From Chloroflexota bacterium (lineage in GTDB: Bacteria > Chloroflexota > Limnocylindria > Limnocylindrales > CSP1-4): a stretch of DNA of 64,000 nt. The notes below the pieces were generated by a model. The model searched no databases and was not told the DNA's origin. It saw only the letters and a list, made by a program, of their open reading frames with translations. The stretch is from contig JACPOR010000021.1 in NCBI GenBank assembly GCA_016191425.1, positions 84,312 through 148,311 of the forward strand, in the 5' to 3' direction. The position numbers and the translations under genes are program-made. Of the stretch, positions 6,781 through 42,976 are shown piece by piece (position 1 is the first letter of the stretch; the number at the start of each line of letters is the position of its first letter).

Positions 6781-6877
6781 GGGAGTGGGTTCGGGCCGGT
6801 GCCCGGCCCGGTCTTCAACACCGGTGGCGCGGCGCTCGGCGTCGCGCGGTGGGTTCGACTCCCATGCGCTCCCGCCA
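6781..6877 (+). tRNA. selC: tRNA-Sec (anticodon UCA at 6815..6817), encoded CCA
   Basis: Hand-folded sequence: GGGAGTGG acceptor; 6-bp D stem UCGGGC/GCCCGG with a 4-nt loop; anticodon loop CUUCAAC; long variable arm GCGCGGC..GUCGCGC; T arm UGGG-UUCGACU-CCCA; then GCGCUCCC-G-CCA. The long extra arm, 6-bp D stem and UCA anticodon are diagnostic. A possible -10 box TAGCAT lies at 6769..6774. Confidence 0.85.
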
Positions 6878-37912: not shown

Positions 37913-38929
37913 ATGCCACCCCTCGCCATTGAGGTGCGCGGAATCCGACGCGTCTACTCGGCCAAGCCGGCGCCCGTCGTTGCCCTCGACCGCGTGGACC
38001 TGCATGTTGCGCCCGGAGAGTTCTTCGGCCTCCTCGGCCCGAACGGCGCCGGCAAGACCACCCTCATCAAGATCCTGACCACGCTGCTCCTGCCCTCGGC
38101 AGGTACGGCGCGGGTCTTCGGCTTCGACGTCGAACGCGACACCAAGAAGATCCGGCGAATCATGAACATGGTGGCCGGGGGCGAGCAGTCCGGCTACGGG
38201 ATCCTCACCGTCCGGGAACAGCTGTGGATGTTCACCCAGTTCTACGGACTGGCCGGGGGCGATGGCTGGCGCCGGGTCGACGAGCTCATCGAGGCCGTCG
38301 GCCTCACCGAGCAACGCATCCAGCGGGTCAGCACCCTGTCGACCGGCCAGCGCCAGAAGATGAACCTGGCGCGCGGGCTCCTCAACGACCCGTGGATCCT
38401 CTTCCTGGATGAGCCCACGCTGGGCCTGGACGTATCCGCCGCACGATCCCTGCGCGAGTTGATCGTCGACTGGAAGCGCGCCGTGCCCGGCCGAACCATC
38501 CTTCTCACGACCCACTACATGGCCGAGGCGGACGAGCTCTGCGACCGCATCGCGATCGTCGATCACGGCCGGATCCTCGCCATCGGTTCGCCCGACGAGC
38601 TGAAGCGACGCGTCCAGCGCGAATCGATCTTCCGTCTCGAACTCGATCACCTCGACGGCGGTGTCGCGACCCTGGTGCGCCTGCCCGGCGTCGTGAGCGC
38701 GAGCGAGGCGGCCGGCGCCATCGATGCGGCAACGCGCCAGACCGTGGTCATGAACCTGGTTCTGGAGGACGACGGGGTGCTCGGTCAGGTCGTGGGCGCG
38801 CTGGCCAGGACCGGGTCCGAGATCCTGGGCCTGCGGAAGTCCGAGCCGACCCTCGAGGATGTCTTCGTGGAGCTCGTCGGCCGGGGGTTCGCGGAATCGG
38901 ATGCCGAAGCTGCCGGGAAGGCCGGCTGA
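37913..38929 (+). CDS. ABC transporter ATP-binding protein (ABC-2/DrrA-like)
   Basis: GLLGPNGAGKTT, LSTGQRQK and ILFLDEPTLGLD motifs. Confidence 0.9.
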   Translation: MPPLAIEVRGIRRVYSAKPAPVVALDRVDLHVAPGEFFGLLGPNGAGKTTLIKILTTLLLPSAGTARVFGFDVERDTKKIRRIMNMVAGGEQSGYGILTVREQLWMFTQFYGLAGGDGWRRVDELIEAVGLTEQRIQRVSTLSTGQRQKMNLARGLLNDPWILFLDEPTLGLDVSAARSLRELIVDWKRAVPGRTILLTTHYMAEADELCDRIAIVDHGRILAIGSPDELKRRVQRESIFRLELDHLDGGVATLVRLPGVVSASEAAGAIDAATRQTVVMNLVLEDDGVLGQVVGALARTGSEILGLRKSEPTLEDVFVELVGRGFAESDAEAAGKAG

Positions 38930-39816
38930 TGGCCGGCATCATCGATCTCGTCGGGCGGGCGGGCATCGGGCCACACGAGGCGGCGGACTGGAGTCGTCGC
39001 CAGGAGCTGATGACGGACCTCCGATCGGTGCGCGGGCGGGCCTACCCCCGCGTCATCGGGCTGGCGCGCGAACCGTCGTGGGTGCTGTTCGAGATCCTCC
39101 TGCCGTTCCTCGCCACGGCGGCGTTCGTGTTCGTGTACCGCGCCATCGGCGCGCCGCAGGAGTACGTCGGGTTCGTGGTCCTCGGCGGGGCCCTCACCGC
39201 GTTCTGGCTCAACGTGATCTGGATGATGGCCAACCAGCTGTACTGGGAGAAGAGCCAAGGCAACCTGGAACTCTATTTCGCCGCCCCGATGCACTTCATG
39301 TCGATCCTCTTCGGGATGGCCATCGGCGGCATCGTCATGAGTACGACCCGCGCCGCCACCGTCCTGCTGATCGCCGGTCTGGTCTTCGGGGTCACCTTCA
39401 GCGTCGACCAGTGGGCTCTCCTGCTCGGGGTGTTCCTGCTCACGCTCGCTGCGCTGTACGGACTCGGCATGGTCCTGGCGAGCCTCTTCCTCGTCTGGGG
39501 GCGCGAGGCCTGGCACATGGGCCAGATGCTGACGGAGCCGGTCTATTTCGTATCGGGCCTGAACTTCCCGGTGGCCCGCCTCGGGTTCCTCGGCGCGCTC
39601 TCGGTGGCCTTCATCCCGCTCGCGACGGGGCTCGACGCGATGCGTCAGCTCGCCTTCACTGATGCGGCATTTCCGCTCGGAACGCCAGACCCCCTCCTCG
39701 AGGTCGCGATCCTGACGGTGATGACAGTCGTCTCGATCCTCGCCGCACGCTGGATGCTGATCACCATGGAGCGACGCGCCCGACGCGATGGGCGCCTCTC
39801 GATTCGATGGCAGTGA
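38929..39816 (+). CDS. ABC-2 type transporter permease
   Basis: Six hydrophobic spans; TGATG overlap with the ATPase gene. Confidence 0.75.
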   Translation: MAGIIDLVGRAGIGPHEAADWSRRQELMTDLRSVRGRAYPRVIGLAREPSWVLFEILLPFLATAAFVFVYRAIGAPQEYVGFVVLGGALTAFWLNVIWMMANQLYWEKSQGNLELYFAAPMHFMSILFGMAIGGIVMSTTRAATVLLIAGLVFGVTFSVDQWALLLGVFLLTLAALYGLGMVLASLFLVWGREAWHMGQMLTEPVYFVSGLNFPVARLGFLGALSVAFIPLATGLDAMRQLAFTDAAFPLGTPDPLLEVAILTVMTVVSILAARWMLITMERRARRDGRLSIRWQ

Positions 39817-40757
39817 GCGCAACGTCGGCGCCCGTCCCGGCCCCGGCGCGGTTCGATTTCGCGAAGGCGGAGGGAAACGGGATCCGCGACTTCCTGCGGA
39901 CGTTCGCGGTCGCGGTTCGGCTCGGCTGGCAGCTCGAGGCAAACTGGACGGACCCGTTGCTCTTCTTCATCTACTCCGTGGCCAAGCCCGTCAGCTCGGC
40001 GCTGATCCTCGTCGTCATGCTGGAAGTCATCGGCGGTCCGTCCGGCCGGGCCTTCCGGCCCTTTGTCGTGGTCGGCAGCGCCCTCTGGTCCTTCGTCGTG
40101 AGCGGCATCGCCGGGTTGGCCTTCTCGATCCTCGAGGACCGCGAACGCTTCCGCATGCTGAAGTACGTCTACGTGAGCCCCAGCGACTTCCTGACCGTCC
40201 TCGTCGGGCGCGGGGTCGCCCGAGTCGGCGTGGGCCTCGCGGGAGCCGCGATCACGGTTGCCGTCGGGGTGGTTGTGCTCGGCGTGCCCTTCGACCTCGG
40301 CAGCGTGAACTGGCCGCTCTTCGTGACCGTGTTCCTGCTCGGGCTCTGGTCCATCGTCGCCGTCGGTCTCCTGATGGCCGGGGTCGTCATCCAGACGCGC
40401 CAGGAGTCGTGGAGCTACCCGGAAGCATTCGCAGGCGCGCTCTTCCTCGTCGCGGGAGCGGTCTTCCCGCTCGCCGTCCTGCCTGCCCTCGTGCAGGTCA
40501 TCGGCCTGCTCACCCCGCTCAGCTGGTGGATCGCCGGCATTCGCGAGGCGCTGTTCCCCGGAGGCCCCGGTTCGATCGGCGGCGCAGGGTCGGTGTTCGC
40601 CGGGGCATTCGGGCACGCGCAACCCGGACCTCTGGAGATCGTTCTTGCCTTGATGGCCACGGGAGCCATCGCTACACTCGGCGCAGTGGCCGTGTTCAGG
40701 GTGAGCGACCGGCGTGCGAAGCAGGCCGGCCTCTACGACCGGACGACCGGCTCCTGA
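39807..40757 (+). CDS. ABC-2 type transporter permease (second subunit)
   Basis: Six hydrophobic spans; overlaps the previous permease by 10 nt. Confidence 0.75.
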   Translation: MAVSATSAPVPAPARFDFAKAEGNGIRDFLRTFAVAVRLGWQLEANWTDPLLFFIYSVAKPVSSALILVVMLEVIGGPSGRAFRPFVVVGSALWSFVVSGIAGLAFSILEDRERFRMLKYVYVSPSDFLTVLVGRGVARVGVGLAGAAITVAVGVVVLGVPFDLGSVNWPLFVTVFLLGLWSIVAVGLLMAGVVIQTRQESWSYPEAFAGALFLVAGAVFPLAVLPALVQVIGLLTPLSWWIAGIREALFPGGPGSIGGAGSVFAGAFGHAQPGPLEIVLALMATGAIATLGAVAVFRVSDRRAKQAGLYDRTTGS

Positions 40758-40811
40758 GGCCATGCGACCCCGTGAGGCCAGTCGGTCCCGCCGCTCGCAT
40801 CAGGAGAAGAC

Positions 40812-41342
40812 ATGCGGATCTACGACGGCAGCCCTCGCCAGGATTTTGCAGAGGTTCTCCGTTCGATCGGCGCGTACCTTGACCAGCGCGGGATGAAGGA
40901 CGTCCTGGTGATGGAGGCCCCCGATGGCTACATCGTCCAGGGGGTGACCCGCGTGGGAGCCACCACCAGCACCTGGTCCGAATCGATGGGTCAGATCGTC
41001 AAGGAAACGATGACCTTCCTCGATGACGACATCGGCCGGTTCATGGACGAATCGATCGCCCGTCGGGGAACCGGTCCGCAGGAGCAGCTCCCGCCGCCCG
41101 GACGGTACGAGCATGCCCTCCGCGTCATCGGCCACTATATCGACGAACAGAAGCCCAGGGACATCTTCTTCTTCGAACAGGACGGCGCCTTCGTCGTACG
41201 CCTGCACAATGGTTCGCAGGCTGGTGCCCTCCATGCGCTCGTCGAGTTCACGCGGGAGGACGTCGAAGCGCTCATCACCAGGGGACCGACCTTCCGCCTC
41301 CCTCCCCGACCGACCGGGCCGGACGGGGCAGCCAGTTCCTGA
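40812..41342 (+). CDS. hypothetical protein with an internal two-fold repeat
   Basis: Two similar halves: ..FAEVLRSIGAYLDQRGMKDVLVMEAPDGYIVQG..TFLDDDIGRFMDE and ..YEHALRVIGHYIDEQKPRDIFFFEQDGAFVVRL..EFTREDVEALITR. Protein-like composition; no family recognised. Confidence 0.6.
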   Translation: MRIYDGSPRQDFAEVLRSIGAYLDQRGMKDVLVMEAPDGYIVQGVTRVGATTSTWSESMGQIVKETMTFLDDDIGRFMDESIARRGTGPQEQLPPPGRYEHALRVIGHYIDEQKPRDIFFFEQDGAFVVRLHNGSQAGALHALVEFTREDVEALITRGPTFRLPPRPTGPDGAASS

Positions 41343-41373
41343 ACCAGCCACCACGCTTGCGGAGGACATCGCC

Positions 41374-41529
41374 ATGCGCGCACTCAAGACCGTCGCCGTC
41401 GCCCTCGGGATCACCCTTGGTGCACTCGTCGTCATCCCGCTGATCGTGCTGGCCGGACTGTTCGTCTGGCTGAAGCTGACCGAAGAGGACGACGAGGATT
41501 CGCTCGAGCTCGACCAGGACGGCGCCTGA
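41374..41529 (+). CDS. small membrane protein (51 aa) with acidic tail
   Basis: GGAGGA lies 8 nt upstream of the ATG. MRALKTVAVALGITLGALVVIPLIVLAGLFVWLKLTEEDDEDSLELDQDGA. Confidence 0.5.
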   Translation: MRALKTVAVALGITLGALVVIPLIVLAGLFVWLKLTEEDDEDSLELDQDGA

Positions 41530-41589
41530 TTCGAAGGCCCGCCGCCCGGCGCGAACGAGGCGCCCGCCGGGATACCGGTGGGCGTCGGT

Positions 41590-41778
41590 GTACCCACGCC
41601 ACGATTGGATGTGCCGACGCCGCGGAAGGCTCTGCCCACGGGACTGAATGCCGTATACACGCAACCGAAGGCCGTACACACGCGACCGAAGGCTGTGCCC
41701 ACGCCGCGGAAGGCCGTACACACGCGACCGAAGGCTCTTGCCGCGCAACGAAACGGTCTGCCCACGCCCGACGACGGC
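41590..41778. repeat. degenerate 21-nt tandem repeat x9, ending flush at the ATG of the EamA gene
   Basis: Nine consecutive 21-mers were parsed, e.g. gtgccgacgccgcggaaggct / gtacacacgcgaccgaaggct (x2) / gtgcccacgccgcggaaggcc. In the EamA frame they read as heptads (VPTPRKA / VHTRPKA ...). Confidence 0.9.
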
Positions 41779-42668
41779 ATGCCGGAGCATCCTTCCGTGC
41801 CTGACGTCACCGTTGCGCCTTTGCGACTGCCGGGCGATCGGCGCAAGAGCAGGGCCTGGTTCGCTTCCCATCGCGCGGCCGAGCTGGGCGTGTTGGTGGT
41901 GGTTGTCGCGTGGGCGGCCAACTTCATCGTCGTCAAGGCCGCGAACCGGGAGATCGCGCCCATCGCCTTCGCATTCATCCGTTTCTCCTTCTCGGCGCTG
42001 CTCCTTCTCGCGCTGGTGCGCTGGCGCGAGGGCTCGATTCGGATGTCGATCCGGCAGGTCGCCCCGATCCTCGCCTTGGGCGCCATCGGGTTCGGGTTCT
42101 ATCAGATGCTCTGGTCGACGGCACTCCAGACGATCCCGGCGGGCGACTCGGCGTTCCTGATTGCCGGGACGCCGGTGTTCACCGCGCTGTTCGCATCCGT
42201 TGCCGGCTCCGATGTCCTTACCCGTCGCAAGCTGGCGGGGGCGCTTGTCTCCTTCGCCGGGGTCGGCATCGTCGTGGCCGGCGGCCCGGGTCTCGGCCTG
42301 GCTGCGTCTCTTCTCGGCGATACGCTGACGCTGCTTGCCGCCGCCTGCTGGGCGATCTACTCATCCTGGGGCGCGCCGGTCCTGCGCCGTCATTCACCGC
42401 TCCGGACCACCGCATGGGCGATGGTCGGGGGCAGCCTGGTGCTCGCTCCGATCGGGCTGATCCAGGCGGCCGCGACTGACTGGGGATCGGTGAGCCCCGG
42501 AGCCTGGGCGGGGTTCGCCTATTCGAGCTGGGGGCGGCCTTCCTGTCGGAGGCGGTCCAGCCGGCCCAGCTGGCGGGTGGCGCGGTGATCATCATCGGGG
42601 TGACGGTCACGCGGGCCTTGCGGATCCCGGGCGTGTCCGGTCGCTTCTCGACCCGTCGGATCGCTTGA
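41779..42668 (+). pseudogene. EamA/DMT-family transporter with internal deletion and frameshift
   Basis: The first frame gives a normal EamA N-half and the start of the second half, up to AWAGFAYSS. At about 42525 the protein-like sequence continues only in the +1 frame: LFELGAAFLSEAVQPAQLAGGAVIIIGVTVTRA, a typical EamA C-terminus with stop at 42666..42668. Roughly two TM helices are missing in between. Confidence 0.5.
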
Positions 42669-42830: not shown

Positions 42831-42910
42831 GTCCCAGGAGTGAATGGCATGTCCCAGGAGTGGCAGGCATGTCCCAGGAGTGAATGGCATGTCCCAGGAG
42901 TGAATGGCAT
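42831..42910. repeat. 20-nt tandem repeat x4 (GTCCCAGGAGTGAATGGCAT)
   Basis: Four adjacent copies; the second is variant (..tggcaggcat). Confidence 0.9.
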
Positions 42911-42976
42911 GCCGTGCCCCGGTCGCTGATCGCGTAAGGGTCGCAAGCGGACCTCCGACCCGTGCCGCCCGCTCGT

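Follow-up and report, generated by a model that had tools for sequence, protein, structure and literature searches.

In a 64,000-nt stretch of DNA (the window) from an uncultured soil Limnocylindria (Chloroflexota), a tandem array of 21-nt units runs up to the start of an EamA transporter gene. The question is whether this array is coding sequence, an untranslated leader or a regulatory repeat, and where its unit came from. The host genome is a MAG of 2.38 Mb in 56 contigs with 68.8% GC; homologues of the window were labelled Chloroflexota or Candidatus Limnocylindrales, and the neighbouring genes (pyrG, ABC-2 exporter) are chromosomal housekeeping genes.

An earlier note on this DNA had described nine degenerate 21-mers at 41590-41778 followed by an ATG, and a frame open into the EamA gene from GTG 41578. 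Both descriptions were confirmed. The array could be parsed in exact register into nine units, 189 nt in total on the plus strand, with the ATG (41779-41781, plus strand) directly abutting its 3′ end. Agreement of the units with the consensus GTACCCACGCCACGGAAGGCT ranged from 11 to 18 of the 21 positions, with unit 9 the weakest (11/21), while random 21-mers of the window matched the consensus at 5.9 positions on average and at 12 at the 99.9th percentile. The 63 codons of the array contained no stop, and their translation returned exactly the heptads listed in the note (VPTPRLD, VPTPRKA, LPTGLNA, VYTQPKA, VHTRPKA, VPTPRKA, VHTRPKA, LAAQRNG and LPTPDDG), with in-frame GTG codons at 41611 and 41695. 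TRF reported a period of 21 with 4.7 copies, 76% matches and 0% indels (score 121), as well as a higher-order period of 63 nt (score 152). Units 5 and 7 were identical and units 2 and 6 agreed at 19/21 positions, while most pairs of units shared only 9-15/21. Since the units are only about 76% alike, slippage within the array should be rare now. The in-register flanks matched the consensus at only 6-7/21 positions, and no partial repeats were evident there. The array contained 22% A, compared with 15.6% in the window, and 10.6% T. Differences between units were distributed over the three codon positions as 10/17/19, so that all positions were hit and there was no sign of selection at the peptide level.

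The locus was compared with its orthologues at 39 loci of the genus and family and at 3 loci taken from public assemblies. Gene order was conserved among the related loci: an ABC-2 exporter, a 176-aa protein, a 51-aa mini-gene, a spacer (about 35-90 nt in the relatives), a hairpin, a variable segment and the conserved EamA core (..HRAAELGVL..WAANF). The mini-gene, which closes the ABC-2 exporter cluster upstream, lies at 41374-41529 on the plus strand in the window; it appears in the ORF list, encodes a single-TM protein (MRALKTVAVALG...EEDDEDSLELDQDGA*) and has a coding score of 0.62 per codon. It was conserved in all related loci, each with a strong GGAGG site. Its TGA (41527-41529) shares the frame of EamA in the window genome. 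A start of EamA at this stop codon, as a cTGA overlap, was rejected, as the phase of the spacer from the mini-gene stop to the hairpin is not conserved (23, 4 and 2 loci in the three phases, with 7, 4 and 2 distinct lengths). From 38929 to 41529 in the window, and at all related loci, an ABC-2 exporter, a two-module protein of 176 aa and a mini membrane protein of 51 aa with an acidic tail precede EamA in an order that was kept family-wide, which hints that they may form a functional unit.

The hairpin lies at 41559-41586 on the plus strand, with the sequence GGCGCCCGCCGG-GATA-CCGGTGGGCGTC and a 12-bp GC stem, and was identified by folding and by covariation over 36 loci from many genera, in all of which it sits directly upstream of EamA. 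Its consensus across the relatives was ACGCCCGCCGG-N4-CCGGCGGGCGT. In the 36-locus alignment 96.7% of the cells were paired, and five pairs carried compensatory double changes, a number reached in 0 of 500 shuffles. G.U pairs were tolerated on the plus strand, which points to an RNA. We also considered a dispersed REP-like element, and this was rejected because the hairpin is locus-specific, with one copy in the window genome. The GC-rich stem-loop resembles an intrinsic terminator, but a U-tract is absent (0-3 T after the stem) and the terminator consensus scan did not call it. In the nearest relative, L014 (genome G118), a 39-nt segment upstream of the 3′ arm of the hairpin, including its 5′ arm, is duplicated (PDANDAPAGHQPG / PDANDAPAGNPAG), indicating that the locus is repeat-prone there as well.

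The variable segment behind the hairpin keeps its frame. The distance that separates the end of the hairpin core (GGGC) from the Trp codon of WAANF took 28 different values between 57 and 327 nt, and it was a multiple of 3 in 36 of 36 loci. This requires at least 27 indel events, every one of them frame-preserving, indicating that the segment is a translated N-terminal tail in the family. In this branch of EamA proteins the tail is fast-evolving and 5-90 residues long. The codon 6 nt past GGGC was ATG in 3 loci, GTG in 8, TTG in 2, CTG in 6 and ATT in 2, together 21 of 36, and it was never NTC despite a GC3 of about 0.9. The residue after this codon was mostly Ser, and public gene calls frequently begin there (MSAGSW.., MSVPPSS.., MPDDSV..). 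The start codons and the public calls together place the usual start directly against the hairpin, where it lacks a Shine-Dalgarno site. A group of relatives (L009, L010, L011, L016, L018, L019, L005 and L006) carried TCG, CCG, GCG or GTT at this position, and most of them had no canonical in-frame start before TM1; L018 had an in-frame TTG about 24 nt past the hairpin. The hairpin-to-TM1 distances in this clade were still all divisible by 3, at several lengths. A frame-constrained tail in a clade without a recognisable start codon raises a question about translation initiation in Chloroflexota.

In the window, the usual start position is occupied by GTA 41590, with which unit 1 opens. We compared blocks at the start of the tail in relatives with the window units, for which the 99th and 99.9th percentiles of chance matches were 13/21 and 14/21. 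The first block of L282, CTGCCCGCGGCACAGCGGGCC, and its second block, ATGCCCGCGACGCGGCCGGGC, each matched the best window unit at 15/21 positions; the third matched at 13/21, the 99th percentile of chance, and the fourth at 10/21, within chance. L282 therefore has about three in-frame 21-nt units, with a marginal fourth. The best matches of the first blocks of L014 and L002 were 15/21 and 14/21. Taken together, the block matches of L282, L014 and L002 identify the array unit as the seven codons with which the ancestral ORF began, start codon included. The unit is no copy of the present post-array sequence, to which it matched at only 7/21 positions. The species compared form a series from one unit over about three to nine. 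The L282 protein and the window protein share about 82-83% identity, and both belong to a clade of seven members whose internal order is unresolved; judged from these sequences, the array is probably older than the split of these species. In the orthologue comparison proposed in the earlier note, L282 had about three units, the nearest relative L014 no array and L280 no repeat. Other species carried arrays of their own in the EamA tail: 15 nt x 4.1 in L012, 24 x 2.1 in L020, 18 x 7.8 in L026 and 24 x 2.6 in L037, and in L283 (protein P0005) a GAELPT-like motif was seen by eye three times at about 18 nt per unit. Every strong tail array in the relatives had a period divisible by 3, the sole non-multiple being a weak 17 x 1.9 array in L036.

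On this evidence we favour, with a probability of roughly 60%, a reading of the array as an in-frame minisatellite of the coding region that is old and decaying and was seeded on the 5′ end of the EamA ORF. The first 21 nt of the ORF, that is, the start codon and six further codons, would have been duplicated head to tail to nine copies, presumably by replication slippage or unequal exchange, and the copies would now separate the conserved RNA hairpin from the original ATG. With a unit of seven codons, every copy stays in frame. A copy that kept an NTG codon (GTG 41611 or GTG 41695), or the new GTG 41578, could serve as the start of a protein lengthened by up to 67 residues, which would form a basic, Pro/Thr/Lys/Arg-rich and predicted disordered tail on the cytoplasmic N-terminus, and copies upstream of the start in use would be leader. 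The array may have been tolerated because the tail is unstructured, and it would have no dedicated regulatory role. AlphaFold gave residues 1-85 a pLDDT of 41-61 and no secondary structure, followed by a confident helical core.

The N-terminal tail proposed in the earlier note is supported in part, by the tail frame kept in 36 of 36 loci, by the origin of the unit in the first ORF codons and by the in-frame arrays elsewhere. GTG 41578 (41578-41580, plus strand) is the sole canonical in-frame start upstream of the array, and the relatives have GCG there; it lies in the 3′ arm of the hairpin, buried in the 12-bp GC stem, and no Shine-Dalgarno site precedes it. Its position inside the stem makes it a poor start candidate. 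Further evidence against the minisatellite reading is found around the array, where the ancestral start position holds the non-start codon GTA, an ATG homologous to the start of L280 follows the last unit, and the public gene call begins at a GTG led by GGAG.

These same features are what would be expected if the array were an untranslated 5′ leader before the true start, at ATG 41779 or GTG 41797, which merely lengthens the gap between hairpin and start; the period of 21 and the open frame would then be remnants of a coding-sequence origin plus chance. We regard this as possible but doubtful. After the array, ATG 41779 opens MPEHPSVPD.., and its counterpart in L280 is MPDDSVTPD.., which begins with a GTG directly past the hairpin of that locus, 6 nt from the hairpin core and without a repeat. 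By the refuting condition that the earlier note itself set, this one orthologue keeps alive the 5′ UTR that the note proposed as its alternative. Downstream, GGAG (41784-41787), 9 nt and GTG 41797-41799, all on the plus strand, form the only start with a Shine-Dalgarno site, 18 nt past ATG 41779, which is also the start of the public call (P0001, 263 aa). The distribution of unit differences, with no excess at third positions, also suits a leader, as does a GC3 of 0.70 in the array compared with 0.86 in the gene core. The array scored -0.15 per codon, below the 1st percentile of long genes. The frame-constrained tails of the relatives, however, had a mean codon score of -0.14, and in codon score and GC3 the array resembled these tails and the lower quartile of certainly coding internal arrays. 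Codon usage and GC3 were therefore dropped as a coding test, because the relatives' tails and many coding internal arrays score alike.

To judge what arrays of either kind look like in this host, we turned to the genome as a whole. At thresholds of score ≥80 and period ≥9, TRF found about 480 array clusters, which corresponds to 202 per Mb and takes up 2% of the bases, with units unrelated to each other. The arrays were classed by their linkage to ORFs (coding stretches). Among those abutting the 5′ side of a coding stretch, 49 of 79 had a period divisible by 3 (p = 1.7e-7), and 46 of these 49 were open in the gene frame; the excess implies that about three quarters of the open 5′-edge arrays with a period divisible by 3 were selected for frame. 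The period was divisible by 3 in 15 of 15 internal arrays and in 26 of 27 of the 3′-edge arrays open in frame, which suggests that the latter are C-terminal extensions. We also considered units containing a start codon as a general rule for 5′-edge arrays; this was rejected, as in-frame ATG, GTG and TTG codons are depleted there.

Several of these figures bear on the leader. A Shine-Dalgarno site with a start just downstream was found at 43% of the arrays with a period other than a multiple of 3, which are presumably non-coding, compared with 17% of those with a divisible period, so that in this respect the window array looks like the non-coding arrays of its genome. On the other hand, its nine units carry no indel despite about 24% divergence. 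Among host-genome arrays with ≤80% matches, 2 of 19 clearly non-coding ones were indel-free, compared with 12 of 19 that were open with a period divisible by 3. A leader also fits poorly with the stop-free run of 63 codons at a period divisible by 3, with the homologous 21-nt units of L282 lying inside a frame-constrained tail, with the in-frame GTG codons inside the array and with the share of open 5′-edge arrays that exceeds the non-coding expectation. The in-phase status of the window array itself follows automatically from the period of 21 and is no independent evidence. We consider it slightly better than a coin toss, inferred from these comparisons, that the array was translated while the gene was intact, and put the chances that it is still translated in the window genome at about even.

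The position of the array, with a conserved hairpin of regulatory appearance before it and the start after it, and a period of 21 bp, equal to two helical turns, would also suit a phase-variable or regulatory repeat, a contingency locus whose copy number tunes tail length or expression, the latter through the hairpin-start spacing or through protein binding sites every two helical turns. The identity of units 5 and 7 and the 19/21 match of units 2 and 6 point to some recent duplication. We nevertheless consider it very unlikely. A unit likeness of about 76% disfavours slippage, the EamA gene is broken, and with hundreds of unrelated arrays in the host genome, at a continuum of periods, one factor for each is implausible. 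Moreover, a scan of the locus for sigma-70 promoters and terminators found no promoter-like site and no terminator, RNA folding of the array gave no structure beyond chance (z = -0.09), and the Rfam search gave no match to it. In a more speculative reading as a start-codon ladder, which we think improbable, multiplication of the start codon and the six codons after it would shift the usable start off a conserved hairpin that otherwise abuts and occludes it. The array would thereby offer several alternative in-frame starts, with gain, loss and decay of repeats tuning translation efficiency and tail length. If this were true, the rampant repeat formation of the lineage would be a supply of evolvable translation-initiation regions.

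The earlier note had also reported an internal frameshift in the transporter gene and suspected that the locus is degenerating. The gene is indeed damaged, consistent with degeneration, but the event is a deletion of 109 nt and no single-base frameshift. The 5′ part of the EamA/DMT gene, which covers the first EamA domain and reaches into the second, runs from 41779 to 42526 on the plus strand. Pfam matched two stretches, the first domain at E = 1.8e-28 (PF00892) and the second cut by the deletion, while the relatives are complete with two EamA halves. The AlphaFold core had high pLDDT, and the product was 81-87% identical to its nearest orthologues, no homologue being closer than 87%. Nucleotide alignment with seven orthologues placed the junction at approximately 42526/42527, with a short GCT microhomology. 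The deletion takes out about TM7-8 and shifts the frame; the 3′ remnant (..LGAAFLSEAVQPAQLAGGAVIIIGV..), at 42527-42668 on the plus strand, is readable in another frame only and ends at TGA 42666-42668. The gene therefore appears dead. As the sequence on either side is otherwise undamaged and close to that of L014, the deletion looks recent, or a strain or assembly variant.

That the array, the deletion or both are artefacts of short-read MAG assembly is in our view extremely improbable. The genome is a MAG of 56 contigs, and the identical units 5 and 7 could let a 42-nt block collapse or expand. The degenerate units are individually distinguishable, however, homologous units occur in the independent assembly of L282, and like arrays occur in other independently assembled relatives. 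An exact scan of metagenome and genome contigs with the 16-mer ACACGCGACCGAAGGC, a short pattern for which a two-unit pattern would have been better suited, returned single chance matches in unrelated taxa only.

The abundance of arrays seems to be confined to a narrow lineage. In a comparison of the window genome (G000) with G118, G018, G005, G006, G227, G066, G022 and G021, based on small samples, the nearest relative G118 had 6 arrays in a sample of 18 kb, a density similar to or above the roughly 200 per Mb of G000. The rest of the genus had 33-50 per Mb and the family's other genera about 17 per Mb; no arrays were found in 80 kb sampled from the sister family. The repeat burst thus looks specific to a sub-lineage. 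The literature searched contained no paper linking Limnocylindria with tandem repeats.

The closest known parallel is provided by the TRs and aaTRs of Borgs, extrachromosomal elements of Methanoperedens (Schoelmerich et al. 2023, PMC9879509). Genic TRs there are all divisible by three, compared with only 14-38% of intergenic ones, and the encoded peptide repeats are disordered, P/T-rich, often in membrane proteins and in some cases N-terminal (PMC9879509). The host genome resembles Borgs in the large number of its private head-to-tail repeats of about 10-60 nt, each specific to its locus, and in that units within ORFs are divisible by three, add disordered Pro/Thr-rich peptide repeats, often sit in membrane proteins, sometimes at the N-terminus, and arise independently in homologous proteins; the mild A-enrichment of the window array on the coding strand may be a further likeness. 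With nine direct units over 189 nt, the array exceeds the region of at least 50 nt and at least three units by which Borg repeats are defined, and its period of 21 leaves a candidate coding ORF unbroken. The differences are that Borg repeats are perfect and recent, while the window units are about 76% alike and appear older than a species split; that the host is a bacterial chromosome of 69% GC and not an AT-rich archaeal element; that flanking partial repeats are not evident here; and that the window unit includes a start codon.

By this comparison the array is a further instance of a repeat type already known, the in-frame minisatellite within a disordered tail, and not a new mechanism; its genomic setting is unusual, and the gene that carries it is broken. 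It may serve as a well-resolved example, on a bacterial chromosome, of what has been described for Borgs, where private repeats start from the ends of genes and create new stretches of disordered peptide; in this case there is a series across species. Coding-region VNTRs and contingency loci of bacteria are found in surface-protein and phase-variable genes of Neisseria, Haemophilus and Mycoplasma, and in the MIRU-VNTR of mycobacteria. Contingency loci consist of identical short units with measurable copy-number polymorphism, and copy changes often switch the frame. The window array shares with them its place at the 5′ end of a gene and a unit length that decides whether copy change keeps the frame; unlike them, it is built of degenerate rather than near-identical units, always keeps the frame and belongs to a housekeeping-type inner-membrane transporter. 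DMT/EamA transporters (PF00892) have 10 TM and include YddG/YedA-type exporters. The gene that follows the array is a typical member of this family, with an N-terminus preceding TM1, but this branch is set apart by its fast-evolving tail and RNA hairpin, and the window copy by the 109 nt missing from its second half. The comparison exposed this conserved hairpin against the transporter start in many genera; the hairpin-abutted start, the clade without start codons and the lineage-specific burst of private repeats are more intriguing than the array itself.

Two further features were observed in the window. A second array, of 20 nt x 4.1 (GTCCCAGGAGTGAATGGCAT, 90% matches), lies at 42831-42911 in a gene-free spacer of 700 nt before pyrG; it is missing from L014, and the spacer of L283 holds an 81-aa gene and a PIN-domain gene. 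A tRNA-Sec was detected at 6781-6873 (Rfam RF01852, 65 bits).
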